Source: Alphaproteobacteria bacterium (GTDB taxonomy: Bacteria > Pseudomonadota > Alphaproteobacteria > Micavibrionales > Micavibrionaceae). Taken from it: a stretch of DNA of 64,000 bases. The notes beneath the pieces are model-generated. The model was given only the letters and a program-made list of their open reading frames with translations, ran no database searches and was not told the DNA's origin. The position numbers and the translations under genes were made by a program. The stretch covers positions 22,794-86,793 of the forward strand of contig JAWKVT010000003.1 in assembly GCA_041397865.1 (NCBI GenBank). The letters run 5' to 3'. This document shows positions 22,768 to 64,000 of the stretch, piece by piece. Positions within the stretch are counted from its first letter, which is position 1. The number at the start of each line of letters is the position of its first letter.

Positions 22768-22858
22768 CCCAATCTATAAAAAAACCACAAAACACCCTAG
22801 AAAATATCTTGACGGCTTTCCAAAAAACAGACTATAAGGGTCTATTATTTCGTCAAAT

Positions 22859-25197: not shown

Positions 25198-26646
25198 ATG
25201 TCCGAAGTCAACGCCGCCGATTTACGGCCCGTCGAATCACCCGATGACGTCATCCACACCTACGAAGGCGCGGGACAAAACGCCAAAACCGGCGTAGAGG
25301 TTGAGCTGGCCTTTTTCGACCCGCAAAGTCCTGACCTGGCCACCATGACACCTGCGCAAAACAAAGTCGTGAAAAACGCAACCAATGCGCAATGCGGCGG
25401 CGACTTCGCCCGCAACGAACCGACCAGCGAAATGCTGGAAATCGGCTCCATTGCCGGAAACCCCGATGAGCTCAGGCACATAATGAAAGACACCCAAAGC
25501 AAAATCGAATGCCTGAGCCAAAAAGCCGCTGATATAGGCCTAAAACGCTCATATTTCCAGCACTTGCCGGATAAAACCGCCACCCAGCTTCTCGCCAATC
25601 TTATGGATGTCGACCGCTATCAAGCCTTCTTCGGCCCCCCGCGCGAAGACATGAAGGCCGTTGCCGCTTACTTTTCCGTCTGCAAATCCAACCAGATCTC
25701 CGTAAGCTACCGTAATCACAATCACCTGCTGGAAAATATCCGCAGACTCTATGTCCTCGCCCCCTTCCTGTTCATGATTACCGATAACGCCGCCCCCTTT
25801 AACGAAGGCTTGCCGTTCAAAGGCAATGCAGGCATGCACCACCGCGCAGCCCTTGGCGACCGCGGCGGCGTCCCGCCCTATGTCTACACCGCCAAAACCG
25901 GTGAGGAATACATCGCCGCCCACATCGACCATGTCATGAACAACCCGCTTTTCGTCTATTACGACGAAAAAGGCAACCTCATCCGCCTGCCCTCCGGCAC
26001 ATGGACAAGCTTTAATAAACTGCGCGATAAAGGCCTAAGCACCGCAACAAACTACTATTTCTCCGAAAGCATCCTCTGGCCGGACGTTAAAATCGCCGCC
26101 CTAAAAAACGATGCGGGCGAAGTCATCAACCACCGCTATGAGGCCCGCATGTTCGGCGTCGGCCTCCACCAACACCAAACCGCGCTGCTTATCATGGCCG
26201 CGCTGGCTTTTGACCCGGAGTTTGCACAAAAAACCGGCGAGCTTTTAGAGCGCTACGGCTTCAACCTGTCAAACCCCGAAACCCTGAAAACCCCGCTGGA
26301 AAACGCCTATAAAACAGCGCAGGAACACGGCGGAAAATTCCTCAATATCCCCTATGGCAACAGCACAATGGCCGCCTTCGCCCGCAACTTCGCAGACCTC
26401 ATTGAAAACGCCGCGCTCATGCAAGGCTTTGAAAACGAACTCACCCCCCTTCTCGCCATCTGCCGCACAGGCTGCACAGATTCCAAAGTAAACGCCCTGC
26501 TCTTTGACACGCTGGATAAAGCCAAAAACTTCCAACGCGCTTACAACCCGGACATGTTCAAAAACCCGAATCTTTGCGCCCATATGCTTTTCGAAAAAGA
26601 AATATCCTCCCACCCGGAAGCTCCAAACGCCTGCCCAACAACCTAA
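25198..26646 (+). CDS. divergent glutamate--cysteine ligase family (GCS2 / plant-type GshA-like) protein
   Basis: 482 aa. Collinear weak similarity to plant/alphaproteobacterial GCL blocks, from memory: GVEVELAFF, NEPTSEMLEIGS, CKSNQISVSY..., LAPFLFMITDNAAPFNEG and WPDVKI. Confidence 0.5.
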   Translation: MSEVNAADLRPVESPDDVIHTYEGAGQNAKTGVEVELAFFDPQSPDLATMTPAQNKVVKNATNAQCGGDFARNEPTSEMLEIGSIAGNPDELRHIMKDTQSKIECLSQKAADIGLKRSYFQHLPDKTATQLLANLMDVDRYQAFFGPPREDMKAVAAYFSVCKSNQISVSYRNHNHLLENIRRLYVLAPFLFMITDNAAPFNEGLPFKGNAGMHHRAALGDRGGVPPYVYTAKTGEEYIAAHIDHVMNNPLFVYYDEKGNLIRLPSGTWTSFNKLRDKGLSTATNYYFSESILWPDVKIAALKNDAGEVINHRYEARMFGVGLHQHQTALLIMAALAFDPEFAQKTGELLERYGFNLSNPETLKTPLENAYKTAQEHGGKFLNIPYGNSTMAAFARNFADLIENAALMQGFENELTPLLAICRTGCTDSKVNALLFDTLDKAKNFQRAYNPDMFKNPNLCAHMLFEKEISSHPEAPNACPTT

Positions 26647-34176: not shown

Positions 34177-35694
34177 TTGGACGAAGAAACACCCTCAGAT
34201 GCAAATGAAAACCTCTCGGGCAACACAGGTCCGCAGGTTTATCATTCCAAAATTGACCCAGAGCTCAAAACCCTTGCGCTCAAACAAATGGTTGACGCTC
34301 TGAAAGGCAACGGCATAACAGCCGAAGATATTGAAATCACGAAATTCGAAGGCGAAACGCTCGAATTTCTGGCCATCACCGAACTTAAACTCGATACAAA
34401 ACTCTCCACAAAACATCAGGCCGGAAAAGTTACAGGACCGATGCTTTTGCCCAATACCGGAGCATTTCAGGAAGCGATGAATAAGGAGGTATATAAAATC
34501 ATTCATAGCCTTGATGTCGTAGAGCGTATAAACAAGGCTGTTCTGGATCGCCCGGATAAAGGGCTTTGTCTGGAAAACATCATGATAAAGCTGCCGTTCC
34601 TGCATAAGGATTTCGTCGTTCACGAACCCTGCAAAGCCTGCGCGGCAAAAGGCAAAATCAACTGCGCACGCTGTCATGGCAAAGGCGAAGAGCCATGCCC
34701 GCGCTGCCATGCCCGCGGCAGCGAAACTTGCCCGACCTGCGGCGGACGGCAATATATTCAAGGACCGAATAACCAAAACCAGCAATGCCAGCGCTGTAAC
34801 GGTTCAGGCCGCGTGGGGTGTACGCAATGCCACGAAAAACGCGAAGTGCATTGCTCGATCTGTAAAGCCGTTGGAACGGTTATGTGCAAACAATGCAACG
34901 GCCACGCCTGGAATTCTGTCATCGGCATGGCCGAAATAAATCCAATCGCTTTCTACAGCTTTGACCGGAAAAACATCCCTCACCAACCGCTGGAAAAACT
35001 GGACCTTCTTGGCTCCGACATACAATTTCACAGCAATATACAGGTCATCCACCGTCATAAAGAGTTGGAACAGGAACGCGACGACATTTCCATTCCCTAC
35101 CATATCAAAGTGCCCATGGCACAAGTCGAATTCATGTTAAAAGAAAAACTGGCTGTTCCCGCATTTCTATTCGGCACACAAGGAAAACTTTATGATATGC
35201 CGCCTTTCATGGAAAAAATCATGGCCCCCGGCATTCAGGCTTTAAAAAAGGCCGCGCTGGGGCAAGGCGACGTAGCAAAGCTTATACAAACCGCTGGACG
35301 TTACCGGACATTACGCCACGTGATCCTTTCAACATCAAAACTCAGCGCAAAAAAAGCGCTGCGCATTATCATGAAGGAAAACCCGATCGGCCTGTCCGAA
35401 GACACCGCAAAAAAACTGATCGTCATGGCCGGGAAAGCACTTACCTTAATCAGTAAAAAGCCCCGTTATACAGGTATCGCAATCGGCCTGCTGCTCGCCG
35501 GACTTATAACCACCGGTTATTTCACCGCCGGACAAGCCGTGATCTATCCGCACCTGCCAAACACAAATGTAGCGCTAGGGGTAGATGCACTCGCTGGTCT
35601 AGCCGCATTAGGCATAGGTTACGTCGCCGCTAAAACCTACACCAAAGGCGCCATGCAAAAATCTCTGGAAACCCTCTTCTCAAAAAACCGTTAA
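34177..35694 (+). CDS. hypothetical protein with eight CxxC motifs (DnaJ-type zinc-finger-like cluster) and C-terminal transmembrane helices
   Basis: 505-aa ORF with a TTG start. CKAC, CARC, CPRC, CPTC, CQRC, CTQC, CSIC and CKQC all fall within about 90 aa. C-terminal hydrophobic segments IAIGLLLAGLITTGYF and ALGVDALAGLAALGIGYVAA. Confidence 0.6.
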   Translation: MDEETPSDANENLSGNTGPQVYHSKIDPELKTLALKQMVDALKGNGITAEDIEITKFEGETLEFLAITELKLDTKLSTKHQAGKVTGPMLLPNTGAFQEAMNKEVYKIIHSLDVVERINKAVLDRPDKGLCLENIMIKLPFLHKDFVVHEPCKACAAKGKINCARCHGKGEEPCPRCHARGSETCPTCGGRQYIQGPNNQNQQCQRCNGSGRVGCTQCHEKREVHCSICKAVGTVMCKQCNGHAWNSVIGMAEINPIAFYSFDRKNIPHQPLEKLDLLGSDIQFHSNIQVIHRHKELEQERDDISIPYHIKVPMAQVEFMLKEKLAVPAFLFGTQGKLYDMPPFMEKIMAPGIQALKKAALGQGDVAKLIQTAGRYRTLRHVILSTSKLSAKKALRIIMKENPIGLSEDTAKKLIVMAGKALTLISKKPRYTGIAIGLLLAGLITTGYFTAGQAVIYPHLPNTNVALGVDALAGLAALGIGYVAAKTYTKGAMQKSLETLFSKNR

Positions 35695-41395: not shown

Positions 41396-41785
41396 CCATT
41401 CAAATCCATTTCATCATTCCGGCCACTCTGCCCCATTGAAGCTCGCTATACTAATTATATATTTATTTTTAAAAAGAGTTTTTATAGTTATAGGTCCTGT
41501 GAATAACGGGCACAGATTTAGCCCCCATTTTTACCCCCAAACACCAGCATAAGAACACTCCTTATTTCTTAACGATTCGCGATGATTCCCCCAGATAAAT
41601 TAAAACAAACAATAATCCGTTTTCCCCATGGGGATGACTCTCATTTAAAAATCGGCATGAAATGGGTGTAACTTCCTCCCGGATTTTTCCTGTGATTCTT
41701 TGGCAACTTACACACAGACCTATGCGCAGAATCGATTCTGTGTTAATCATTAAAACAGAATATATGCTAACGCAGCGGATTTCTT
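41396..41785. other. candidate chromosomal replication origin (oriC) region next to hemE
   Basis: Non-coding 390 bp next to hemE, the conserved alphaproteobacterial origin position. AT-rich tract at 41451-41490. DnaA-box-like TGTGAATAA at 41498-41506 (8/9). Six GANTC sites at 41574-41738. Local switch of gene orientation from minus (left) to plus (right). Confidence 0.45.
41574..41738. promoter_or_regulatory. cluster of six GANTC (CcrM-type methylation) motifs
   Basis: GATTC 41574, GATTC 41584, GACTC 41636, GATTC 41694, GAATC 41729 and GATTC 41734: six sites in 165 bp against fewer than one expected. Confidence 0.5.
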
Positions 41786-42400
41786 ATGTATCAAGAAGCT
41801 TTCACAAAGCTGGAACTCGATGAAACAGCCCTGATTTTAGACAGGCTGAACCCGGAATTTGATGGAAGTGTTTTCGATCCTGTAGAAACGACCGTGCTTG
41901 CACAAAACATCCGATTCTACCCCGGATTCAGGATTCTTGATATCGCTGATTATGGCACCATACCGCCGCTGCGGCGCTTTGTTCTTTACAGCGCCGATAT
42001 GTTTTCGATTCTGGACTTCTCAAATGAACCGCTCTACGCCCTTAATCAAAAACTTCCCATAGATTTAAATGAAAATAATGTTGCAGATTATATTCGGTTT
42101 TTCTTCACTTACGTAAGAGGACGTCATGGCCGTTTTATCATCACTGAAAGTGTTGACGATATAAACTGGAAAGAAGAACCGCCGCCAACAGCGCGCAAAG
42201 CTATCGGGAAAATGCTGACGCCCGTAAAACTCGAAAAAAAGGATGAAAACGGAAACTATCATTTAAATGCCTGTATGGTTTTCAAAGACAGCCTGTTCAA
42301 AAGCCGTATAAAAGTTGAGCCAAACGGCTTCGTATCCTTAAGTGATGAGGAGTTATTGGTCGAGGATATGCCCGTTCTGGATGACACATTCGGGCAATAA
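41786..42400 (+). CDS. hypothetical protein
   Basis: 204-aa ORF, lower GC, no recognised motif. Confidence 0.5.
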   Translation: MYQEAFTKLELDETALILDRLNPEFDGSVFDPVETTVLAQNIRFYPGFRILDIADYGTIPPLRRFVLYSADMFSILDFSNEPLYALNQKLPIDLNENNVADYIRFFFTYVRGRHGRFIITESVDDINWKEEPPPTARKAIGKMLTPVKLEKKDENGNYHLNACMVFKDSLFKSRIKVEPNGFVSLSDEELLVEDMPVLDDTFGQ

Positions 42401-42693
42401 AGCCTCAAATTATCCGATACTGCTGGAAAATTTTATCGTACCGGAACGTCAGAAAAATTAACCTCATATCAATGAAAAATAATATTACGTAAACTAAAAA
42501 TTAACACTAGGTTAAATCCCGTACATTATTTGCGATAACATAGGCTATTTCTTTGATTTTTCCCGATTTTTTCGATTTTTAGAAAGGTTCCGTTAAGGAA
42601 TTAAGCGCCATAATGGAATCATAAGCCGTAAAAAAGCGGCAAGGGCATTTACAAATTAGGGTTCTTTAAAAACATCAAAAAATTGGGTTCATT

Positions 42694-44043
42694 ATGAGCG
42701 ATTCATTTGGGGACATTACGAGACAAAATCAAAGTGTAAAAACGGTTTGCCGGGTTGCTTACACGATTAACGGTGTGCAGCCGGTCATCAGCACGATTAT
42801 TGATGACCAGCCGCTTTTTTACATGGATTTTAATTACAGCTATGAAGACGAAGAGGATATGAGATTCGATGCTGCCGATATTGGCATTCTGGAAAGTGAA
42901 ATCTGTGCTTTAAAAAACGAAATAGGAACCATCGAAAGATTATCGAAAAATTTTGTCAGGGAAAGTGACGAAAAAGTTGAAGAGTTTTTAGATGATGCAA
43001 GTTTCATGACAAACACTGCGCAAATATATGAAGAATTTCCAATAGAAAATCTCATAGAAATCTTGCGCGAAAGCCGCTTGGCCACCGCTTATCTGGCATG
43101 TGCGGAAAAATACGACGTAAACGTAAAATACTCGGCCCAGATTGAAACCGCACAATATGACCGCAATGCGGGGCTTATCCTTGTTAATCCAAATCTGGAT
43201 ATAGTCGATCAGCAATTAATAACGGTTCAGGAATTGCGCCGCCATTGGCAGCATCGCCAGGGTGTATTAATCCATCCGCTTATGTTTCATCCTGATAACG
43301 CGATTCTTGTAAACCGGGCGCAAGTCGCCGATCTGGTCGTATCCATGATCCGTGTGGCGTGGGAGCTTCAGCTTTCCGGAGAAAAAGAAGTTTGGGAGCG
43401 CATCGAAAACTCATCCATGGCCGATCTGGGCCGCGCCTTTGCCCGCGAAGCTTTTCTCGATTTTCGCACCATTAATAACGGACAGGCCGCTGCGGCTGTT
43501 TTCGAAGCATGGTTCCTGAGTGAAAGATGCAGAGCGCAAGATAAAGTTATTATCAATCAAATGCTTGCTGATTATAAAGGCTATGTTTTTGACCTGAAGG
43601 AAGCTGAGCAAAACATCACACCATCCTTAATTGCTGCGCTGGGTGAAATGCCTTTCGGCAAAAATTACCTGGCAGAACATGCCGTCACCATCATGGAAGA
43701 TGCGATATTTACCGATGTGCGTGATCGTTCAAACGCGAATTTCCTTTGGTTTATCAAGTTTGAGCGCTCTTTCCGCGAATCGGAACAGGAGTTGCAAACA
43801 TCCGCCCCATCATCCGCAGGAGACATTCGTTTTTCTGCATCATATCTCGAAGGGGTTCAGGATCATGCATTCACAGGGCAATCAGCACAGGTCATTTCAT
43901 TATTTACAGAAGAATGTAACGAAGCAGGGGATAAATCTGGAAAAGACGGCGGACGCTTGGCACCAAAGCCGCGTCCAAAACGAACAAATAATAAGAGCGA
44001 AGACTCAAACATCGTATATATCCGGCGCTTTCCTACAGAATAG
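42694..44043 (+). CDS. hypothetical protein, paralog A of a tandem pair
   Basis: 449-aa ORF. Roughly 300 aa are collinear with the next ORF (for example ADLVVSMIRVAWELQLSGEKEVW vs ADLDILAVLVGWELRGEGKGSLW, and NGQAAAAVFEAWF vs NGKALAAAFTQWF). Confidence 0.6.
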   Translation: MSDSFGDITRQNQSVKTVCRVAYTINGVQPVISTIIDDQPLFYMDFNYSYEDEEDMRFDAADIGILESEICALKNEIGTIERLSKNFVRESDEKVEEFLDDASFMTNTAQIYEEFPIENLIEILRESRLATAYLACAEKYDVNVKYSAQIETAQYDRNAGLILVNPNLDIVDQQLITVQELRRHWQHRQGVLIHPLMFHPDNAILVNRAQVADLVVSMIRVAWELQLSGEKEVWERIENSSMADLGRAFAREAFLDFRTINNGQAAAAVFEAWFLSERCRAQDKVIINQMLADYKGYVFDLKEAEQNITPSLIAALGEMPFGKNYLAEHAVTIMEDAIFTDVRDRSNANFLWFIKFERSFRESEQELQTSAPSSAGDIRFSASYLEGVQDHAFTGQSAQVISLFTEECNEAGDKSGKDGGRLAPKPRPKRTNNKSEDSNIVYIRRFPTE

Positions 44044-53769: not shown

Positions 53770-54423
53770 TTAAAACCGGTATGAAACACCGGCTCCGACA
53801 ACATATGGATCAAGTTCTATATCTGAAAGAATAGTATTGCCGTTCAGACTGGCATCAACATCCAGATAAACTTTTTTGACATCAAGGTTGAGACCCCAGT
53901 GATCATTAAGCCAGTAATCAAACCCGGCCTGTAAAGCGAAACCAAAACCACCCTCAATATCCAAATCTGTAAAACCGGCTCCGGAATTTTCACCGTAAAA
54001 GATAGAGTAATTAACGCCCGCGCCAAAATAAGGGCTGAAATCGCGACCTTTAAGCGGGTGGTATTGCAATGTAACCGTAGGTGGCAATGCCCAGGCATCA
54101 CCCAGATCTGTATTACCGTTGTAATACACGTCATGCGGTGTAGTTGCGGCAATTGCCTCAATGGCAATTTTATCTGTAATAAAATAGGTAAGGTCGACTT
54201 CCGGCATAACGGGGGACTCATCAACATCCGTCTTGCCGCCGATATTCACGCTGGAATCGTCATCAGGCGCAAGAACGATCCCGCGTAAGCGAACTTGGAA
54301 CCGCTCCTTATCCCACAGCGATTCAAAGTCCGAACCCGCATAAGCCGCAGCATTAATAAAAAAACTTGTAAAAAAGACGGCGCCGACACCGGCAACGCCT
54401 ATGGCCTTGAAAAAAGCTTTCAT
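53770..54423 (-). CDS. ompW: OmpW family outer-membrane protein
   Basis: Signal peptide. LPPTVTLQYHP, PYFGAGVNYSIF, GFALQAGFDYWL, C-terminal ...GVSYRF. Confidence 0.85.
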   Translation of the reverse strand: MKAFFKAIGVAGVGAVFFTSFFINAAAYAGSDFESLWDKERFQVRLRGIVLAPDDDSSVNIGGKTDVDESPVMPEVDLTYFITDKIAIEAIAATTPHDVYYNGNTDLGDAWALPPTVTLQYHPLKGRDFSPYFGAGVNYSIFYGENSGAGFTDLDIEGGFGFALQAGFDYWLNDHWGLNLDVKKVYLDVDASLNGNTILSDIELDPYVVGAGVSYRF

Positions 54424-54575: not shown

Positions 54576-55616
54576 TCAGTAAGGAACCGGATAATCGCGC
54601 CGAACCGCTTCTATGTCCTTTAAAACTTCACTCGATAAATTGATATCAATCGAGGCAATATTGGTCTTTAATTGCGCCATCGTGGTCGCGCCGATAAGTG
54701 TCGAAGTCACAAACGGTTTCGCGTTCACAAAGGCCAGCGCCATCTGGCACACATCAAGCCCATGCCGTTCAGCCACCTTCACATACGCTTTCACAGCCGC
54801 ATTGCATTGTGCGGTCAGGCGTTGTTCGGGCCGCGCATCCAGATCAATGCGTGTGCGCTTGGGCCGCGCCCCGTCAATATATTTCCCGCTTAAAATCCCG
54901 CGAGACAGCGGCGACCAGGCCAAAAGCCCGCAATCCTCCGCCACCGCGATCTCCTGTAAATCCGTTTCAAACAAACGGCAGAGCAGCGAATATTCATTCT
55001 GAATAGAGGCCATGCGCGGCAGCTCTTTTTCTTCGGCAAGCCGCAAGCATTTGCTCATCCCCCACGCTGTTTCATTCGACAATCCGATATGACGGATTTT
55101 CCCCGCAGTAATAAGCTCTTGCATGGTTTCAAGCACTTCAATGAAGTTTTCTTCTTCGGCCTTCACATCAAAGCTTGGCGCATAACCCCAATGCTGCTGA
55201 AAATGATATGACCCCCGGTTGGGCCAGTGAAGCTGGTAAAGATCAATATAATCCGTTTGCAACCGCTTGAGCGAACCTTCAACGGCTTCCAGAATATTCT
55301 TCCGGTCAATCCGTGCTTTCCCGCCGCGAATCCACGGCAATGCAGGTCCGGCAATTTTACTGGCCAGAATAACTTTATCGCGGCATCCTCGCGCAGAAAA
55401 CCACGATCCGATAATCTCTTCCGTCTTCCCGCAAGTTTCCGCAGAGGGCGGAACAGCGTACATTTCCGCCGTATCAAAAAAATTGATTCCTTGATCCAGC
55501 GCATAATCCATCTGCGCATGGCCTTCTTCTTCGGTATTCTGATTACCCCATGTCATGGTGCCAAGGCCGATTAAACTAACCTCTAGGCCTGTACGGCCCA
55601 ATTTACGATATTGCAT
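54576..55616 (-). CDS. NADP(H)-dependent aldo/keto reductase (Tas/YajO-like)
   Basis: MQYRKLGRTGLEVSLIGLGTMTWG, FFDTAEMY, IDLYQLHWP and IGLSNET. Confidence 0.9.
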   Translation of the reverse strand: MQYRKLGRTGLEVSLIGLGTMTWGNQNTEEEGHAQMDYALDQGINFFDTAEMYAVPPSAETCGKTEEIIGSWFSARGCRDKVILASKIAGPALPWIRGGKARIDRKNILEAVEGSLKRLQTDYIDLYQLHWPNRGSYHFQQHWGYAPSFDVKAEEENFIEVLETMQELITAGKIRHIGLSNETAWGMSKCLRLAEEKELPRMASIQNEYSLLCRLFETDLQEIAVAEDCGLLAWSPLSRGILSGKYIDGARPKRTRIDLDARPEQRLTAQCNAAVKAYVKVAERHGLDVCQMALAFVNAKPFVTSTLIGATTMAQLKTNIASIDINLSSEVLKDIEAVRRDYPVPY

Positions 55617-55640: not shown

Positions 55641-56300
55641 CTATAAAATCGGTTTGCGGAACAAATCGGTTTCGATCTGCAAATTTTTAAGGCTGTCCGG
55701 TAGCGGGTAAGGAATAGTCAAGTCCGGCGGATTTTGCAAAATGACAGGAAGAATCTTGTTAAAAAGCTCAACACGTTCCGGGTCAACCTCCCGGCGGTTG
55801 ATTGTAATACGCTCAACAGCAGAGCCCATAACCTCGTCGGGACGGAAATTGCATTGAATGCTCTCCATCCGGTATTCGCCGAAAGCATCAAGCTGCGTGT
55901 ACCATATCCGCACATAGTCACCAAAATCATCAACTGTACTAATACGCAAATCTTTAGGAAACTGGACATGAAGCTCAAGAAAAACCTTGCAAACGCCAAA
56001 GGTTAACCCGGCTTTATAAGGCACGAACAAACCGTAGGCAAACCAGCTAAAAAGCGCTAGCCCTGCTAGTGCGCCTCCTCTTGTAAAAAGTTTTTTACGC
56101 TTAAGTTTTTGCGTTGCCGCCATCTTGCTGTTTGCCAACGCAATTTCAACTTCATCTGGCGCAATTTCAGTTTTTTTTGATGCCGCCTTGGCCTTCGCTT
56201 TTGCTTTCAAGGCTATGCGCTCAGCTCTGTCCATAATTTCCGCGCCGAGCGTTGCGCCGCCGTCTTCAGTGTTATCGTCGTCTTTCGGTGTGTCGCTCAT
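55641..56300 (-). CDS. hypothetical single-pass membrane protein, last gene of the icm-like block
   Basis: 219-aa ORF starting 10 nt after the icmB-like stop. Acidic and Lys/Ala-rich N-terminus, TM segment GGALAGLALFSWFAYGLFV. No motif recognised. Confidence 0.5.
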   Translation of the reverse strand: MSDTPKDDDNTEDGGATLGAEIMDRAERIALKAKAKAKAASKKTEIAPDEVEIALANSKMAATQKLKRKKLFTRGGALAGLALFSWFAYGLFVPYKAGLTFGVCKVFLELHVQFPKDLRISTVDDFGDYVRIWYTQLDAFGEYRMESIQCNFRPDEVMGSAVERITINRREVDPERVELFNKILPVILQNPPDLTIPYPLPDSLKNLQIETDLFRKPIL

Positions 56301-56310
56301 GGCTTTTCCG

Positions 56311-59300
56311 TCAGGTTAACTTAACCCGTTTACCGGCCTCTTCCTTTTGCGAAGCTTTGCTGTGTTCAACCATTTCTTCGACGATTTCTTCAATAATCGT
56401 ACTGATCATGGCCGCTCTGGCCTCGCCGTCTTCGCTGCGCGCCAAAACGCGGCGGCGTATTTCACTGCGTGCGCTTCCTCCGGGATAGCTTGCCGCCAGA
56501 ACCTGCCGCGCCCGTCCTGCGCCAAGCTTGTTATAAAGTCTGTTTCGTATGGCCACATCTTCGGAAGAAGTTGATAAGGCCCAAAGTTCGATAGGGCCAA
56601 GTGTGCTGTATAGATGCTGCTCATAACGGCCTTCGGTCGATCCCAAAACAAACAGGCAGGGCGCACCTGTTGATTTTGGCCCGGTCAGCTTATGGCGGAT
56701 AACCGCACGCGCGGTTTCGGATAGCCCAAAACGCTCAACAACATTATCAACCGCTTTATCGGAAATCGCCGTGCCCAAAACCCACACACCTGTGGCCAGA
56801 TCGACCATATCCTGAGAAAAGTCATCTATAAGTTGAGAGGTCAGCACGATCTGGACTCCGCGCTTCCGCCCTTCGCGGACATCGCGGATAACCTGATTGC
56901 GTACAGAGCTTGATTTACTGGTTCTGTGAAATTCGTCGTAGCACAAACGTTTTGGAGATTCCGCAAGCTCCTGTAAGCGCATTTCATGATATTCCCGGTA
57001 TCTTTGCGGTACAAATTGTACGGCTTCCGGCCCCATCCACCAACTTCGCACCAATGCATGACGCGCCAGCATGTACATGATAGATGTTTGCCGGTCTGCC
57101 GTTTCATCGCCTTGAGGCGCAACATCCATAAGATCCAAAGAGCATACACGCGAATCGGCAATGTCGAACTGGGTAACGGAAGACAGGATGGGATATTCAC
57201 GAATGGCCGAAGTCACCATACGTTCAAACGCGCTGACAACGGTTTCAGCGCTAAAACCAACGGATGTTTCCTCAAGAAGCGTTCTGATTTGCGGCCTGCG
57301 CGAAGCCGTAATCGAATCATTCAGCGTTGGTACGGCATGACGTTGTGCAAGGTTTGCAATATGATATTGCCCAAGGTCGAACATCTTATCGACAATATCC
57401 CACCAATACGGGTCCGCCGGTAAATGAACGTTAAACTTAAGCAAAGCCTCATCAACCTCGGCCTCAAGACGTGGAAGATAGGGCCGCGGTTCTGCATTGG
57501 CTTCATTATCGTTACGCCAGCGATACATTTCATCGACCACAAGCCCGGCCATTTGCTGCATCCCGTCATAAGGTTTATCATAGCCCGGAGGCGTACACAG
57601 CAACGTCAAAAGTTCGGTAAGATAGCTGCGCTCATCAGGCAAAGGGCTGCGGCAGCCAAGCTGCGTATCAAAAGGATTGATCGCAAACTGGTGGTTCATC
57701 TGTAACCGGTAATAGGTGGCTTCATGCTGGCGGTTCAGCGGCAAAGCTTCACGGATAAGAGAGATAAGTCCCGAAGATGAAGGACCGATGTCAATAACGG
57801 CAACATAGGGAAGCTTGCTAAGACCCGGAGAAAGACAGGTTCCCAGATTAAGCGTATTAAGCAAAACGGATTTCCCGGCGCCGGGTTGTGCAAAAATCAA
57901 ATCGAACCATGTCGTCGTGATATTGGTTCCCGTCTGATAGGGCCAGACTTTACCATCAGGCGTACGGAAAAGCATGGAGCCGCCCTCTGTAAAGGGACTG
58001 GAAGGACGCTGCCACGGTAGAAGCTTCATAACTTCAATCATGGGGGCAATGCCCGTGGGGGCCGATCCGGCGCAATGGATTCCCATCGCAGAAGACATAA
58101 TGCAATCAAGCGGATCGCCGGAAAACTCGCTAACCTGCGCATAACCCCAACTCTCTATAGCTTGCAGAAGAATGGAAAGCCGATCGAGTATTTCATCTTT
58201 TTCTTCAATAACGCACCATGTTGCAAAAGAGACGCGCAAACGCACAACAGGCTCACTTCTGGCCATAGCCTGCAAGCCCTCCAGAGAATACTTAACCTGT
58301 TTATTAACGGCATTTGTAGGCCCCATAATGGTCGCCAAAAATGTACGCATCTGTGTTGCATAAATGCCGCCGCCTTCAATCAGGAAAGAAATACGGAAAG
58401 GAATATCGGCCTCAACAAGACGGTTCAAAAGCCGAGGAAAAGCCATAGCATCCATAGGACCAAGGGTCATGTCCCCCCCGGCCCAGAACAAATTTCCGAT
58501 CCGGCAAACGGATTTACCTAAAACTTTCGCATCACCGGCAACAATCTGATTCGGAATATTGGGCCAGAGAAGATCGGACATATCAATTTTATTTGTCGGC
58601 GCGCGTGCAGGAATGGGATCGCCCGGCAGGCAGGCCCGCCAGCTTTGATTTGCGCGGTCGGGAAACAGATTGCTTCGCACAGCATTAAGAGCTTTATGAA
58701 CCTCCATCAGGTCTCCGCTGAGTCCCATTTCATCTAGCGCGCCAAGAACGGCGGAAACAAAGCTTTTATGCCGGGTTCGTAAAGGCTCAAGAGCGGCAAA
58801 TGGATATTGCGATCCCGATGCGTTAACCCACTCTTTTGCATTTTCCTTGGAATCTTTAGCTGAGCGATCAATTTCACTTTTTGTCAGAATGCTCGGACGT
58901 GTCCAAAGTACAAAATAAGCCTCCTCATGGCTTAAAAACCGTTGCAAATGCGAAATACGCTCACTAATCAAATCGTCAAGTTCCAAACCTATATTGTCTG
59001 CGGAAATACGAACCGGACGAACCAGAGAGTTTAAAACTTGCCCGATACGGCCTGGGTCGCGGACATAGTAAACCTGCATGGCATGGCCTTGACGATCAAA
59101 TCGGGAACCGATCTTAATCGTTGAGGCTTCGACAATATTATTATACTCCTCTTCCCCGATAATCTGTTTACTGCCCTCAATCTTTATATAAGACACAAGA
59201 GAGCCATCGGTCGAAACAAGCGATGTATCGCTATCGGCCGTTTCCAGGTTAATAAAAGACGATATCGACTGGCGCATCGCCTTTTGAAACGGCGCAAGTA

Positions 59301-59319
59301 TTTTTTGCAAAGTGTTCAT
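56311..59319 (-). CDS. icmB: type IVB secretion ATPase IcmB/DotO-like
   Basis: 1002 aa, close to the roughly 1000 aa of DotO/IcmB as I recall. N-terminal ...INLETADSDTSLVSTDGSLVSYIKIEG..., Walker A FAQPGAGKSVLLNTL. Lies directly downstream of icmJ- and icmD-like genes, as in Legionella. Confidence 0.8.
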   Translation of the reverse strand: MNTLQKILAPFQKAMRQSISSFINLETADSDTSLVSTDGSLVSYIKIEGSKQIIGEEEYNNIVEASTIKIGSRFDRQGHAMQVYYVRDPGRIGQVLNSLVRPVRISADNIGLELDDLISERISHLQRFLSHEEAYFVLWTRPSILTKSEIDRSAKDSKENAKEWVNASGSQYPFAALEPLRTRHKSFVSAVLGALDEMGLSGDLMEVHKALNAVRSNLFPDRANQSWRACLPGDPIPARAPTNKIDMSDLLWPNIPNQIVAGDAKVLGKSVCRIGNLFWAGGDMTLGPMDAMAFPRLLNRLVEADIPFRISFLIEGGGIYATQMRTFLATIMGPTNAVNKQVKYSLEGLQAMARSEPVVRLRVSFATWCVIEEKDEILDRLSILLQAIESWGYAQVSEFSGDPLDCIMSSAMGIHCAGSAPTGIAPMIEVMKLLPWQRPSSPFTEGGSMLFRTPDGKVWPYQTGTNITTTWFDLIFAQPGAGKSVLLNTLNLGTCLSPGLSKLPYVAVIDIGPSSSGLISLIREALPLNRQHEATYYRLQMNHQFAINPFDTQLGCRSPLPDERSYLTELLTLLCTPPGYDKPYDGMQQMAGLVVDEMYRWRNDNEANAEPRPYLPRLEAEVDEALLKFNVHLPADPYWWDIVDKMFDLGQYHIANLAQRHAVPTLNDSITASRRPQIRTLLEETSVGFSAETVVSAFERMVTSAIREYPILSSVTQFDIADSRVCSLDLMDVAPQGDETADRQTSIMYMLARHALVRSWWMGPEAVQFVPQRYREYHEMRLQELAESPKRLCYDEFHRTSKSSSVRNQVIRDVREGRKRGVQIVLTSQLIDDFSQDMVDLATGVWVLGTAISDKAVDNVVERFGLSETARAVIRHKLTGPKSTGAPCLFVLGSTEGRYEQHLYSTLGPIELWALSTSSEDVAIRNRLYNKLGAGRARQVLAASYPGGSARSEIRRRVLARSEDGEARAAMISTIIEEIVEEMVEHSKASQKEEAGKRVKLT

Positions 59320-59432
59320 ATAGAATGTTTATTCATTTCTTCTTAAAAGACTACCACAGATAAATATAGCCAAGATCACGCCTGCATCCTAGGGGTTTAA
59401 AGAGAAAGAGGAACTTTTTGCCCGAATAAAAA

Positions 59433-60155
59433 TCAGGCTGCCTGATCTATAAGCTCCTGATAAATCGAAATCCATTGCGGCGGAGTTTTCCCTCCAAACG
59501 GCCCGTCTTTTGAACGCCAATAGGCAAGAATTTGCGGAAATTGATTAAATTCCAGATCCGCTTCTTTAATAATGCGCCGGTCAAGCGGGAACAGCCGCAA
59601 GCCCTCAAGCTTCTTTTGGCGTTCCGCATAATGCTTCGGCCCCAGATAGTCTTTTAAAACCATGGCAAGAATATAAGGATCGTCGGTATGAACGCGCCTT
59701 GTGGCTTCTTCACGCCGCCCCATAATGATATCCAGAGATTTTCTGGCGGCCTCCGCCACCGGTCCTTGTGAAATGCGCGCAACGTAAATAGCGCGCGCAA
59801 GATGATGAAGCATGGCCTGATCTATTTCGGGCAGCCAGATCAGAACGCCGGATTTCATGCTGCTGACATTCTCCAGACAAAAACATTGATGGCAAAAAAT
59901 ACAGACGGTTAAAAGATTGTCTTCCGAAAAATCCGCCGGGTTGTGATTTTTATGGTGAATTTCCTGATACTTCTTGGACTGAAACCCGCAGCACTGACAC
60001 GTAAAATCGTCGCGCTCAAAAATTTTTTGCTTAAGCTCTTTCGGAATTTTGCCGCCCACAGCAGAAGAGGAGCCGGATGTTCCGGCTCCACTCTGTCTTT
60101 TTGCATCGCCCGGATCTGACCGGGAGATACCCAATATAATGGGATAATTTCCCAT
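59433..60155 (-). CDS. icmJ: IcmJ/DotN-like Cys/His-rich zinc-binding protein
   Basis: 240 aa. FTCQCCGFQSKKYQEIHHKNHNPADFSEDNLLTVCIFCHQCFC is an HNH-like Cys/His cluster. Position between icmD-like and icmB-like genes. Confidence 0.68.
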   Translation of the reverse strand: MGNYPIILGISRSDPGDAKRQSGAGTSGSSSAVGGKIPKELKQKIFERDDFTCQCCGFQSKKYQEIHHKNHNPADFSEDNLLTVCIFCHQCFCLENVSSMKSGVLIWLPEIDQAMLHHLARAIYVARISQGPVAEAARKSLDIIMGRREEATRRVHTDDPYILAMVLKDYLGPKHYAERQKKLEGLRLFPLDRRIIKEADLEFNQFPQILAYWRSKDGPFGGKTPPQWISIYQELIDQAA

Positions 60156-60158
60156 GAA

Positions 60159-60542
60159 TTAGGTAACGTTAAAGTTTGTTTTGTTCAGCTTTGCAGCGTC
60201 TGTCGTTGTACCGCCTGAACCAACTGTCTCGAACATCGCTTCGAACAGGATCGGCAACGCAAACAGCGCACCACCGGCCGCCAGTCTGATCGCACCGTCT
60301 TTCAAAGGTGTCTGCGTTGGGTTTTCAACGTGATCTTTAACTTTCATCACGCCAAGAACGCCGAGCAGGATCCCGAACATATACGACAGAGCCGTCAACA
60401 GACCCGGAAGATCCTGAATAGATGTCGTAATGTTTGCGGCGATAGTGCTGAAGTCGTTACCAGCATGTGCCTTTGACGCTTGTCCGGCAACCATACCGGC
60501 AACCATCACTGCACCCATTTTATTGTAAGTTTTCTTAAACAT
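60159..60542 (-). CDS. icmD: IcmD/DotP-like small membrane protein
   Basis: 127 aa. Signal-like N-terminus, two hydrophobic helices around MKVKDHVENPTQTPL. 4-nt gap to the icmJ-like start. Confidence 0.68.
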   Translation of the reverse strand: MFKKTYNKMGAVMVAGMVAGQASKAHAGNDFSTIAANITTSIQDLPGLLTALSYMFGILLGVLGVMKVKDHVENPTQTPLKDGAIRLAAGGALFALPILFEAMFETVGSGGTTTDAAKLNKTNFNVT

Positions 60543-60606
60543 AGTTTAGTTCTCCTCTACCAAAGGTTTGCTCACTTAAAATTTACACTCTCACGGACCA
60601 CCCGCT

Positions 60607-62403
60607 TTACGAGAATGCAATACCATAACTCCCAAGTCCCAACGTGGTTTGCACCGCATTGATTAGGGGGCCTAAGTTCACAGCCAGCGCCCCACCTACG
60701 ATGTGGGTTATACCGGCCATGACCGAAGCTTGTTGGTTGCCCTCTGCAACGCCTCGTATAATAAATATACCACGAACGAAGCTTATAAGGCCAACAATGA
60801 TCACAAATTGTAAAATTGCACTAATCGTCATATGCGCAGAAACAGCCTCGGCACAGCCCAAGCCGCCACCAACACACGGGCTGTATTGCATTTCTGCGAA
60901 AGTTGCTGTCATGGGGCTTCCGACAAATGTTGTAGAAAATGCCCGCACCAGTTCGTTATAAGAAATCAGTGCAGCGCCCATGACAAAGGTCATGGCTGTG
61001 CCAATTCCGCCGGGGCCGCGTGCGCCATCTTGTGCGCTTTTAATAAGGCGCGAGATACCGATCATCAATAAGATCATACCTGAAACAAAGGCGAAAAAGT
61101 TCAGCACGACATGCAGCGGACCCATAATATCGCCCATCGCACAAGCAAGAATTTCATCCAAACCCAAGCCGCCGCCGCCGCCGCCGCCAAGTCCAAGCCA
61201 GCCAAGGAAGCCGCCACCGCTGCAACCGCCGCCGCCAAGCAGACTGGCCAAAAACCCGCCGCCATCATTATAGCCCTTGAAGCTAATGGGAATAAGGGCA
61301 CTTCCGGACAGCAGCGGTCCGCCAATAGTATTTCTTGTTACTTCGACAATAATAGGCAAGGCGAAAAAGAAGCCGCCAGCTAGAAGGCGTGAAACCCCTT
61401 CCCATACCTGTGTTTGTTGAGGATTTAAAACGTGATCGCGGATTTTAAATATGCCCCAAAGCCCGAGGATCAGACCGATAACATAGGCGCATGCGGTCAA
61501 AAACGCGGGAAACGCGCCGGCATGAAGAAGAATGCCGCACATCAATTGTCCTAAGCTTGGTCCGCTTCCTACACCGATTATAGCGCCAACACCGCCAACA
61601 GTAGATGCAACCGGATTACACAATCCTTGCGCATAAGAAGAATAAAGGAAGTTAAAGCCGCCTAACAAAGACGTAATATTGCCGATAATGCCAAGGCCGT
61701 TACCGCCCACAGCATCAAACATGGCGTTATAGATCGTTGGCAACGCAAACAGCGCGCCGCCGACAAGCAGGCGGATAACGCCTTCCTTAATAGGGGTTCC
61801 TTGCGGTCCGTCCGGGTTCTCCACATGGTCTTTGATTTTCAAAAGCCCCTGTATCGTGATAACAAGGCCAAGAAGATAGGCCGCTGCGGAAATTGCCCCC
61901 GGCACATTTTCAATAGAATCTATTAAATTATCCAAGACAGCATTGAAGTTTAAGCTTACGACACCACCAAGCGTCCCTAAAAACCCGGAAATATCATTGG
62001 CGATTGAAGTATTGTTAAACGAAAGCGTATTATTGCCGATCGTTAAAAACACGGCTTCATAAACAATAGGCAGAGCAAACAGCGCGCCGCCGATAATCAG
62101 ACGGATAATGCCGGTTCGCAACGGAACCTGAGCTGGATTCTCAACATGTTCTTTTATTTTAAGGACGCCCAATACGCCAAGCAGCAAGCCAAGAAGATAG
62201 GCCACTGCGGAAACAAGGCCGGGAAGGCGTTCTACAGATGTGATAATGTTCTCTGTTACATCATCAGCAGAAATCGTTTGCGCAAACGCAAAATCGCCAT
62301 AAACAACGGAAAAGAATAAAGAAAACAGAAAAACCGCGCCCAGTTTTTTAAAACATGCGCTTACACGACCCGTACCATATCTTTTATTAAAAAACACCAC
62401 CAT
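60607..62403 (-). CDS. icmC: IcmC/DotV-like membrane protein with five tandem IcmD-like hairpin modules
   Basis: 598 aa. Modules at about residues 47-122, 154-232, 286-361, 416-492 and 521-590. The first three carry [LF]KI[KR][ED]HV.NP, as in the 127-aa neighbour. Gly-rich linker at residues 379-414. Confidence 0.6.
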   Translation of the reverse strand: MVVFFNKRYGTGRVSACFKKLGAVFLFSLFFSVVYGDFAFAQTISADDVTENIITSVERLPGLVSAVAYLLGLLLGVLGVLKIKEHVENPAQVPLRTGIIRLIIGGALFALPIVYEAVFLTIGNNTLSFNNTSIANDISGFLGTLGGVVSLNFNAVLDNLIDSIENVPGAISAAAYLLGLVITIQGLLKIKDHVENPDGPQGTPIKEGVIRLLVGGALFALPTIYNAMFDAVGGNGLGIIGNITSLLGGFNFLYSSYAQGLCNPVASTVGGVGAIIGVGSGPSLGQLMCGILLHAGAFPAFLTACAYVIGLILGLWGIFKIRDHVLNPQQTQVWEGVSRLLAGGFFFALPIIVEVTRNTIGGPLLSGSALIPISFKGYNDGGGFLASLLGGGGCSGGGFLGWLGLGGGGGGGLGLDEILACAMGDIMGPLHVVLNFFAFVSGMILLMIGISRLIKSAQDGARGPGGIGTAMTFVMGAALISYNELVRAFSTTFVGSPMTATFAEMQYSPCVGGGLGCAEAVSAHMTISAILQFVIIVGLISFVRGIFIIRGVAEGNQQASVMAGITHIVGGALAVNLGPLINAVQTTLGLGSYGIAFS

Positions 62404-62548
62404 ATATCTATTACATCACACTTTTCATAAACTGAGCAAATTTGAATAAAATTTTATTAAAAATGCTCAAAAACAACAACCTGCAGTTAGCATAACATAT
62501 AAAATGTAAAGAAAGTGTTACCGTAATTTATATAGATTTATCAACGGC

Positions 62549-63823
62549 TTATTGAGAAACTGAACCTTCGGAACCGCGAACCACCCAAAGACCGTTCTCT
62601 ATGGCAATAGATTCTATACGTCCCAGCCCGGCAACATGATCGCCAACCTCAACACGGCGAAAATCAAGGCTGCCTTTGGGCGCAATACTCGCTTCACCGG
62701 GCCGTGCGGAGCGCATAACCCATTCTGTTGCCTCAGATTTTTCTTCCAAAGAAGCCGGTTGTTTCTCGATTTTAGAGGCGCTGTTTTGGGTCGATGAGGC
62801 CGGGGAAATCTTGGCCCGGCCCGCTTTGGCATCCTGCGCCGCCGAAACATTGTGAGAAACGCTGGAAGCCGCACCCTTTTTCAGCGCAGCAATTTCATTT
62901 CGCAAATTGCCAATCTCGGCGTTAAGAGCCTCAATCTCACCTTGTGCCGAACTCAGATCTGCAGAAAGCTTCTTTTCTCTCTCACCGGCCTTCCTTAAAG
63001 CGGCCTCGTTGTCGCTAAGGGTGGAACGAAGTTCGGCAATAGTATTGTTCGTAGCGTCTTGCCGGGGCGTTTTTTCATCATCTTCAACAGCGGGCACCCT
63101 ATCCTCAACAGGCAGTTCGTCCTCCATCCGGATTTCTGTTTCCGCAACATCTGCCTGAAGATCTGAAAGGACATTATTTTCGGCAAGATTCTGCGGCGCT
63201 TCTGCAGTGGGAAGATCTGACGTTTCAAGAGGAAGATCCAGATCGGCCAGCATATCGTCTTCGCCATCCGCCGAAAATTCAGGCAATGGCGTTAAAACAT
63301 CATTCTCTCCCGGCTCTGCCGCATCGCCCTGTAAATCGGCTAAATCGGTGCCAAGACTTTCAATTTCATCAATGCCCATAGCTACTTGATCGTCACCTGC
63401 GCTTTCAATTGGCGCGGGCATAGGCGGAAATGTACCATCCGCATCGGCATCCGTAAGGATCGGCAAGGCGTCCTCCGGGGAGTGATCCAGCGCTGTCTGT
63501 GCAGGTTGTTGCTCATCGGGCAACGTCGCTGTAGGCCCGCCGCCAAGCTTTGAAAAAATAAACCCGCCACCGCCAAGGACTGCAACGCCTATAACGATAA
63601 GGGTAAAGTTTTTCTGCAAAAAAGTTTTCTTTTGTGGAGCTGCCGCAACATCAGCATGGGCGGCCTTTTCGTTATCATCCGCATGGGCCGTAACATCAGA
63701 GCCCCCATCATCCTCGTCGAAATCGTCCCACGTTTCGTCGTCGAAATCATCGTCCGTGTCGATGTCCTCAAAATCTATATCTTCAAAATCTTCATCTTCT
63801 ACGGCGTTTTTGTCATCTTGCAT
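62549..63823 (-). CDS. icmG: IcmG/DotF-like bitopic membrane protein
   Basis: 424 aa. Extremely acidic N-terminus, a single TM helix (FTLIVIGVAVLGGGGFIF), acidic/Pro region, coiled coil (LSSAQGEIEALNAEIGNLRNEIAAL) and a small C-terminal domain. The architecture and position match IcmG; the sequence itself I do not independently recognise. Confidence 0.5.
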   Translation of the reverse strand: MQDDKNAVEDEDFEDIDFEDIDTDDDFDDETWDDFDEDDGGSDVTAHADDNEKAAHADVAAAPQKKTFLQKNFTLIVIGVAVLGGGGFIFSKLGGGPTATLPDEQQPAQTALDHSPEDALPILTDADADGTFPPMPAPIESAGDDQVAMGIDEIESLGTDLADLQGDAAEPGENDVLTPLPEFSADGEDDMLADLDLPLETSDLPTAEAPQNLAENNVLSDLQADVAETEIRMEDELPVEDRVPAVEDDEKTPRQDATNNTIAELRSTLSDNEAALRKAGEREKKLSADLSSAQGEIEALNAEIGNLRNEIAALKKGAASSVSHNVSAAQDAKAGRAKISPASSTQNSASKIEKQPASLEEKSEATEWVMRSARPGEASIAPKGSLDFRRVEVGDHVAGLGRIESIAIENGLWVVRGSEGSVSQ

Positions 63824-63903
63824 GATTACAGTCTTCCATTTTCAAAACTCTCGTGATCTTACAAAGAGAAAATGAAACAGTCCAGAGCATAAAATTATGA
63901 TCT

Positions 63904-64000
63904 CTACGGCCCTTCTTCATTTACGACAGGCTCAAGAAATAAAACGCCGATAGGCGTACCAACGGCAATACGAACCAGAACTTCAGTATCATCTGCCATT
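63904..64000 (-). CDS. 3' end of an upstream ORF, possibly IcmE/DotG (VirB10/TrbI-like C-terminus); partial
   Basis: Open frame entering from beyond the window, ending ...ADDTEVLVRIAVGTPIGVLFLEPVVNEEGP* (stop at 63904-63906). The G..I.V.F motif resembles VirB10-family C-termini, and the position matches icmE. Confidence 0.3.
   Translation of the reverse strand, partial: MADDTEVLVRIAVGTPIGVLFLEPVVNEEGP

Follow-up and report, generated by a model that had tools for sequence, protein, structure and literature searches.

The question raised by this locus is why an alphaproteobacterium should keep, among its housekeeping genes, a set of genes resembling Legionella's type IVB secretion system (T4BSS), Dot/Icm, and at which target such a machine would be aimed. 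The stretch of DNA analysed, here called the window, comprises 64,000 nucleotides (positions 22,794 to 86,793 of contig JAWKVT010000003.1, assembly GCA_041397865.1), and the genes in question form a minus-strand block that runs off its right edge. The best explanation that we can offer, and one that we consider on balance probable when taken as a whole and with delivery into prey bacteria included, is that the genes of this block make up the distal half of an operon, the main one of a chromosomal Dot/Icm-like T4BSS.

The block consists of six minus-strand open reading frames (ORFs) packed at 55641-63823 of the window with intergenic gaps of 3-145 base pairs (bp), and its guanine-plus-cytosine (GC) content of 47-51% is the same as that of the rest of the window. 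An earlier reading made from the letters alone, hereafter the sequence-only reading, had described this six-ORF block, and an ORF check recovers all six where it had placed them. Together with the cut gene at the edge and the gene at the inner boundary, the features are as follows.

63904..64000, minus strand: 3' end of icmE/dotG, encoding a VirB10/TrbI-like protein of the core complex, truncated at the edge of the window and recognized by a C-terminus match in relatives.
62549..63823, minus strand: icmG/dotF-like gene for a bitopic protein of 424 amino acids, recognized by its family profile against Legionella DotF and found at the IncI TraP position.
60607..62403, minus strand: icmC/dotE-like gene for a polytopic membrane protein of 598 amino acids, a fusion, recognized by IcmD-like modules and the TraQ model.
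60159..60542, minus strand: icmD/dotP-like gene for a small inner-membrane protein of 127 amino acids, recognized by position and architecture.
59433..60155, minus strand: icmJ/dotN, encoding the zinc-binding subunit of the coupling-protein complex, 240 amino acids, recognized by NF038221 and DotN in the PDB.
56311..59319, minus strand: icmB/dotO, encoding a TraU-family VirB4-type ATPase of 1002 amino acids, recognized by TraU homology, Walker motifs and database names.
55641..56300, minus strand: u219, encoding a conserved protein of 219 amino acids without known family, 10 bp downstream of icmB and recognized by its conserved position.
54576..55616, minus strand: aldo/keto reductase, the inner boundary gene, 24 bp downstream of u219, recognized by PF00248 in a relative and itself not a secretion gene.

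The ATPase is 28% identical to IncI1 TraU over 92% of its length (tblastn, E 1e-78), and the IcmB family profile finds TraU with E 6.7e-116, whereas the generic VirB4 model TIGR00929 is matched by the N-terminus only (E 1e-4). Its Walker A motif GxGKS (residues 480-484) and Walker B motif DE (795-796) are invariant in 42 IcmB sequences. There is no Pfam family for the protein and a PDB sequence search yields no relative, DotO seemingly being without a deposited PDB chain, so that its identity rests on the homology with TraU and on the names given by the sources: the window protein is MEZ5815330.1, named 'type IV secretion protein IcmB' by NCBI, and JGI calls its relatives 'intracellular multiplication protein IcmB'. 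By sequence comparison it is accordingly assigned to the TraU/IcmB/DotO branch of VirB4-type ATPases. The sequence-only reading had allowed for the opposite outcome, an ATPase that groups with VirB4/TraC of type IVA systems among neighbours without matches to Dot proteins, but the VirB4 match is weak and the neighbours match DotN, DotF, TraQ and DotG. Across the clade IcmB is 63-91% identical, and an exhaustive search returned 1,424 cluster representatives. The closest plasmid-borne relative (43.8% identity, full length) lies on pRlX5 of Rhizobium leguminosarum (locus L049, NZ_CP140867.1 280820-323714), where its neighbours are RecD2-, UvrD-, RecJ- and PrimPol-like; this locus was rejected as a T4BSS and represents an IcmB-type ATPase in a DNA-processing context.

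The genes upstream of icmB point the same way. IcmJ scores 92.5 bits (E 2.4e-26) with the NCBIfam model NF038221, just below the cut-off of 100 bits, and finds the Legionella DotN chains 5x1h, 6sz9 and 7ovb in the PDB with E values of about 1e-20; C53, C56, C85 and C88 are invariant across 40 homologues, and the family profile furthermore matches IncI TraT (E 1.6e-8). IcmG as a single sequence gives a weak match to the IcmG/DotF model NF038218 (E 4.8e-4), and a profile of 22 family members has Legionella DotF (7muc) as its top PDB match (E 8.6e-7); the protein has an acidic N-terminus, one predicted transmembrane helix (residues 71-94), a coiled coil and a small C-terminal beta domain. The 598-residue protein begins with three tandem IcmD-like hairpin modules (residues 49-124, 152-236 and 280-361), which are 61%, 46% and 40% identical to the separate 127-residue protein, and after a Gly-rich linker its C-terminus (residues 437-590) matches the model NF033883 of IncI1 TraQ (E 4.9e-13), the IncI counterpart of IcmC/DotE. 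This fused form, with lengths of 541-668 residues, is present in 34 related loci. The 127-residue protein itself has a weak match to DUF6750 (E 0.0037) and none in the PDB or to IncI TraR, and its family shows 27 invariant columns, including KDHVENP, among 22 homologues; it is IcmD/DotP-like by position and membrane-hairpin architecture. The last 97 nucleotides of the window, finally, encode MADDTEVLVRIAVGTPIGVLFLEPVVNEEGP and a stop; 28 related genomes have upstream of icmG a gene whose conserved C-terminus aligns with this sequence, and the full-length IcmE homologue in a related locus (L002) matches the DotG model NF033900 (E 1.7e-48) and PF03743 (TrbI).

Most of the sequence-only assignments have thus held. 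Those of IcmB/DotO, IcmJ, IcmG and IcmC are borne out by profile matches to TraU, DotN, DotF and TraQ, respectively, and the proposed icmE C-terminus by its 28 homologues, while that of IcmD is retained from position, hairpin architecture and the weak DUF6750 match only. The pairing of IcmC with DotV had to be given up, since in the established nomenclature IcmC is DotE and DotV is a paralogue.

The last gene of the block, u219, is a real and conserved gene that directly follows icmB in 44 of the 48 sources compared, these being the window and 47 related loci. Read from the alignment, its product is a bitopic protein with a basic N-terminus, a hydrophobic segment, a C-terminal domain of about 120 residues and two invariant Cys, but a hydropathy scan predicts no transmembrane segment. 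There is no match in Pfam, NCBIfam or the PDB, and a single-sequence AlphaFold model has a predicted local distance difference test score (pLDDT) of 46.9, too low for a fold search. The idea that u219 is the counterpart of IncI TraV, which occupies the same position, found no support from hidden Markov model (HMM) or profile-profile comparison, and the protein is probably a clade-specific component of the apparatus.

A machine of this type needs more than the window holds, and the remainder was sought by extending the locus through a 90%-identical relative, tied to the source contig by way of NCBI accessions. In the relative (loci L001 and L002) the block continues upstream as icmE, icmK (PF12293, E 4e-76) and icmL, the latter with 203.9 bits for NF038072 (IcmL_DotI_only) against a cut-off of 175 bits. 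Diverging from icmL are three tandem paralogues of 458, 462 and 607 residues, which are secreted, contain Cys and are all-helical, followed by flgK and flgL, and beyond these the opposite strand carries a TcpQ-domain protein, icmT (65.1 bits for the IcmT/TraK model, cut-off 40) and dotB, for which TIGR02524 gives E 2e-118 and 395.7 bits in locus L050 as compared with 1e-73 and 248.3 bits for TraJ. Two further genomes add dotC (PF16932) and dotD (PF16816; NF033882, E 2.6e-31), together with a TrbN/IagB-like lytic transglycosylase, a family-less protein of 344-370 residues and a DsbG-like thiol-disulfide isomerase, so that this cluster reads dotD-dotC-dotB-icmT with the transglycosylase gene ahead of it; that the isomerase gene, upstream of dotD, stands in for TrbB is a conjecture. 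The extension recommended in the sequence-only reading has in this way added icmK, icmL, dotB, icmT, dotC and dotD. By homology the set of outer-membrane core-complex proteins is complete, with DotC, DotD, DotH/IcmK, DotG/IcmE and DotF/IcmG, while the inner membrane is represented by DotI/IcmL, IcmT, the DotE/IcmC-DotP/IcmD fusion and IcmD (the last by position and architecture), and the ATPases by DotO/IcmB and DotB, with the coupling-complex subunit DotN/IcmJ present as well.

The source genome has the same layout, since its contig of 191,630 bp carries IcmB as MEZ5815330, the first secreted paralogue as MEZ5815338 and DotB as MEZ5815345, offsets of +8 and +15 that are exactly those predicted by the gene order of L050; the DotB in question (MEZ5815345.1) is 92% identical to that of L050. 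The two secretion-gene clusters are about 10 kilobases (kb) apart, separated by flgK-flgL and the three secreted paralogues. The flagellar pair was seen between both clusters in three of three genomes examined (for example L050 14734-18399 and L051 12998-16664), a position that opens the possibility of regulation shared with motility and the attack phase. The secreted paralogues, of roughly 450-610 residues (L050 10001-14605, L019 122-6700, L051 16802-21158), occur as two or three tandem copies diverging from icmL, six in L019, and share the motifs AMQQ..G.F.DA, YCDP.DNN and YQNPDFYANLYDKPANV; more than 1,400 database relatives exist, none of them named, and a TraW-like identity was rejected.

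Is this a resident of the chromosome or a visitor? In the synteny table, which covers all loci, most genomes have the run icmL-K-E-G-C-D-J-B-u219 and after it the aldo/keto reductase and a MltA-Tim44-FxsA-SecB set, the reductase following u219 in 34 sources (33 related loci and the window), and among 46 species-representative genomes the shared neighbourhood extends from the reductase through MltA, Tim44, FxsA, SecB, DnaQ, CoaE and AroE to Maf. A minority of rearrangements, namely a split before icmC with the icmL-K-E-G half elsewhere (L016, L027, L047) and an icmB detached from icmJ/D/C (L032, L034, L045), with u219 usually alongside and absent in L034, tells us that the operon is not obligatorily contiguous. 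Median identities to the window proteins are 75% for IcmB, 73% for DnaQ, 72% for PDRP, 59% for SecB, 58% for AroE and 55% for CoaE; the neighbouring housekeeping genes span 48-73%, and IcmB falls in step with them but stays higher, while DotB is 82-93% identical among the best 120 matches. Because the same core-gene neighbourhood recurs in about 40 species-level genomes with matching divergence, the system is chromosomally fixed, as the sequence-only reading had proposed, and the lack of a transfer RNA (tRNA) in the window, the lack of any shift in composition and flanks that in relatives look by eye like housekeeping genes together argue for strong purifying selection. Genome comparison hence shows vertical inheritance and strong purifying selection of a T4BSS that has its place among core genes near the replication origin.

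The flanks in the window are holA-parB-parA-rsmG-mnmG-mnmE-rho-hemH-hemE on one side and PDRP-maf-aroE-coaE-dnaQ-secB-fxsA-Tim44-mltA on the other, both of them runs of typical alphaproteobacterial core genes, as had been recognized beforehand for most of their members. The origin-proximal position that had been suggested likewise fits the parAB-gidAB-hemE context, a switch in GC skew and an AT-rich stretch at about 41.5-43 kb: at 41400-43600, beside hemE, the skew moves from about -0.37 to about 0/+0.18 in largely non-coding DNA of 37-39% GC. In many alphaproteobacteria oriC adjoins hemE, and the 41.5-43 kb stretch, about 13 kb from the block, is the probable replication origin; a scan with the E. 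coli-type motif found no cluster of DnaA boxes of that type at 41400-43600.

As to the host, the closest IcmB proteins (77-91% identity) come from metagenome-assembled genomes (MAGs) labelled 'Alphaproteobacteria bacterium' or 'Micavibrio sp.', and a scan of one genome per GTDB species gave 46 loci, all in MAGs, with IcmB 63-90% identical, under the labels Alphaproteobacteria, Micavibrio sp., Rhodospirillales, Pseudobdellovibrionaceae and Bdellovibrionales. The last two are explained by NCBI taxonomy, which files Micavibrio under Pseudobdellovibrionaceae. The host is thus a Micavibrio-like (Micavibrionales) alphaproteobacterium represented by a MAG, and the cultured members of the Micavibrio lineage are obligate epibiotic predators of Gram-negative bacteria.

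This brings us to the target. Given that the cultured relatives are obligate epibiotic predators and that a bacteria-targeting T4BSS exists, a prey bacterium is the most likely one. That the Dot/Icm-like system delivers proteins into prey bacteria is argued by analogy, and we would put it at close to an even chance, if anything a little below; the wider claim, that the conserved T4BSS, order-wide and ancestral, is the organelle with which Micavibrio and its relatives attack their prey in epibiotic ('leeching') predation, is a tentative one, possible rather than probable. In such a scheme DotL/IcmO (and DotM) would be supplied from another locus, the assembled machine would span the predator envelope and recruit substrates at the inner membrane, and on contact effectors would pass into the attached prey bacterium and either kill it or make it permeable, for which the kib T4BSS of Pseudomonas putida IsoF would be a precedent as regards bacterial killing. 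The triple IcmD-IcmC fusion, the IcmX-like secreted paralogues and u219 may adapt the injector to the envelope of a bacterial target. The T4BSS would provide a concrete candidate for the predation apparatus with which Micavibrio kills and feeds from the outside.

Several points weigh against delivery into prey. With the exception of kib, the chromosomal T4BSS that have been studied well are, to our knowledge, all directed at eukaryotic cells. Neither effectors nor immunity genes or translocation signals were identified, and the link between T4BSS and predation is drawn here from genes alone. An IcmX-like role of the secreted paralogues may be proposed from modelling as a weak lead, and profile searches give no sequence support for that identity; the AlphaFold model of one paralogue (49-sequence alignment; pLDDT 69.5, predicted template-modelling score 0.54) finds 9ngy, the DotA-IcmX protochannel of Legionella, as the best fold match in the PDB, but the match is weak (Foldseek E 0.067, probability 0.94, template-modelling score 0.27). 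In addition, DotL/IcmO, DotM/IcmP and DotA were not located with IncI1 queries in the approximately 100 kb around the clusters, here and in the MAG relatives. The 2011 genome paper on the predator M. aeruginosavorus states that there is neither a type III nor a type IV secretion system and proposes haemolysins and type I/II secretion instead (PMC3189940). The supplementary expression table of the same paper, on strain ARL-13, nevertheless lists GMV_383 'icmO', a gene of 2583 bp adjoining gyrB and argS and expressed in both phases with expression indices of 4.3 and 3.5 (PMC3189940), which suggests that DotL/DotM are encoded elsewhere, and the conclusion of 2011 appears to have overlooked type IVB genes. 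In ARL-13, FlgK bears the number GMV2433 and entericidin, at 2.461 megabases, the number GMV_2458, with some 25 genes and 25 kb between them, a spacing that matches the FlgK-to-SecB/entericidin interval holding the T4BSS block in relatives; icmB itself was not directly confirmed in this strain, and it is gene spacing alone that is consistent with its presence.

An apparatus of the same kind could also be aimed at eukaryotes, as in Legionella and Coxiella, and inject effectors into their cells, serving survival of protist grazing or life with eukaryotic hosts, and in favour of this it may be said that the classical chromosomal Dot/Icm systems all act on eukaryotic hosts, that several HMM scores are nearer to Dot/Icm than to IncI models, and that the clade is for the most part made up of uncultured MAGs, with lifestyles not established. 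Furthermore, Needham et al. (2022), who in a passing mention count relaxase-less T4BSS (pT4SSi) in seven marine Micavibrionales, read such marine systems as a sign of host association (PMC9418006). However, the only cultured members prey obligately on bacteria, no icmS, icmW, icmQ or icmR was seen in the regions read (nor were icmN, icmM or icmF/H), no proteins with eukaryote-like domains were seen in the window, and kib demonstrates that a T4BSS may target bacteria (PMC9519443). We therefore regard a eukaryotic target as unlikely.

The block could on the other hand be an IncI-like MPF_I machine for DNA transfer, or a domesticated remnant of a conjugative element, serving DNA export, uptake or mating. 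Indeed icmL-K-E-G-C-D-J-B is collinear with IncI1, each positional counterpart is the best IncI match, and the IcmC-like protein ends in a domain that the TraQ model of IncI1 recognizes. The sequence-only reading had taken icmE-G-C-D-J-B as the Legionella/Coxiella order, and the order does match, but the same order is found in IncI1; being common to Legionella region II and IncI1, order alone cannot separate a translocator from conjugation. The relation to Dot/Icm and to IncI1 was judged by relative model scores, and those for DotB, DotG and DotI/IcmL lean to Dot/Icm, the DotG model giving 165.4 bits and TraO 102.2 bits with the IcmE of a relative. A DNA-transfer function is likewise in poor agreement with the gene content, since no relaxase, oriT or tRNA was found in the 64-kb window or in the approximately 45 kb spanning both clusters in relatives, and NikA was not found there either; IncI1 protein queries revealed no homologue of NikB, TrbA, TrbB, TrbC, TraY or ExcA in any fetched locus, and there is no integrase or shufflon among the called and annotated genes of these loci, so that neither the relaxase nor the shufflon that the sequence-only reading had named as marks of an integrated IncI-like element was seen in the extended locus. 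A recently integrated element of this kind is rejected by synteny, composition and the lack of mobility genes, and the constant core-gene position in about 40 species, with matching divergence and ordinary GC, makes a DNA-transfer machine in general distinctly improbable. That the system is decaying or incomplete and now functionless, or that it serves only adhesion or the envelope and translocates no substrate, can hardly be entertained. The vicinity of the clusters yielded neither a coupling-protein gene nor one for DotA, and some loci have the detached icmB or the split operon described above; but every ORF is intact, invariance extends to the motifs of the ATPase and the zinc ligands of DotN, and in dozens of species IcmB and DotB rank with the best conserved proteins of the region, a pattern incompatible with decay.

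Delivery into prey bacteria by a Dot/Icm-like T4BSS accordingly remains the reading that we prefer. Parts of the picture were already known, since the names IcmB and DotB already stand in the NCBI and JGI records of these genomes and the 2022 survey counts the systems in Micavibrionales; no paper describing or testing the Micavibrio T4BSS was found in the literature.

Some other proteins of the window deserve mention. The ORF at 10186-12255 (plus strand) encodes 689 residues without a Pfam family, the N-terminal half being a coiled coil and a long stretch being rich in Pro, Gln and Asn, and lies in a 2-kb bin with an extreme AT skew of 0.448; its product may be secreted or exposed at the surface and is a candidate T4BSS substrate. 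Likewise without a Pfam family are the proteins at 8454-9713 (minus strand, 419 residues), 25198-26646 (plus strand, 482 residues) and 34177-35694 (plus strand, 505 residues), which are only candidates for effectors; the last has a run of CxxC at about residues 153-241, zinc-finger-like by eye, and hydrophobic C-terminal segments. A protein of 217 residues at 53770-54423 (minus strand), between mltA and the aldo/keto reductase, has by eye the look of an outer-membrane beta-barrel (signal peptide, C-terminal Phe), and the synteny table shows no counterpart at the same position in any related locus.

It remains to compare the system with those already known. The X-T4SS of Xanthomonas, Stenotrophomonas and Lysobacter is a functional analogue only, delivering toxic effectors into Gram-negative rivals or prey in a contact-dependent manner, but it is a VirB/VirD4 type IVA machine with other components and another effector recognition. 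The pT4SSi of 'Candidatus Comchoanobacter' and UBA7916 belongs to the same class by TXSScan, although that survey focuses on symbionts of eukaryotes and the Micavibrionales are only counted in it (PMC9418006). With the MPF_I of IncI1 (R64-type) plasmids the system is collinear over traM-N-O-P-Q-R-(S)-T-U and traH-I-J-K, but NikB/NikA, TrbA/B/C, TraY, ExcA, a thin pilus and a shufflon were not found nearby, and in contrast to IncI1 it sits off mobile elements and is inherited vertically with core genes.

Reviews still regard type IVB systems as characteristic of Legionellales and IncI plasmids, a picture that the present case widens. Legionella Dot/Icm, which a 2024 review presents as a trait of a group of Gammaproteobacteria, shares with it homologues of DotO, DotN, DotF, DotG, DotH, DotI, DotB, DotC, DotD and IcmT, the local order icmL-K-E-G-C-D-J-B, a chromosomal location and the lack of an adjacent relaxase. 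It differs in that the host here belongs to an alphaproteobacterial predator lineage and the target is probably bacterial, that DotG is short (about 420-450 residues, TraO-sized), that IcmC is fused to three IcmD-like modules, and that clade-specific genes are present in addition (u219, those of the three secreted helical paralogues and one with a TcpQ domain), with flagellar genes between the clusters. The kib T4BSS of P. putida IsoF, finally, is lethal on contact to Gram-negative bacteria (Purtschert-Montenegro et al. 2022, PMC9519443) and is like the present system a T4BSS in a non-intracellular bacterium; it includes dotH-G-F and an arrangement hypothetical-trbN-dotD that recalls, as an arrangement only, the u370-TrbN-like-DotD genes found here (PMC9519443). 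However, kib resides on a recently acquired 67-kb island with lower GC and an integrase in a few Pseudomonas strains (PMC9519443), whereas the present system is ancestral to a whole order and forms part of the core genome, and its bearer is an obligate predator. It would follow the island-borne kib as the second possible case of type IVB secretion directed at bacteria and be the first that is vertically inherited, and if the proposed function is true, type IVB secretion would be an ancient tool of bacterium-on-bacterium predation, reaching beyond intracellular life in eukaryotes.

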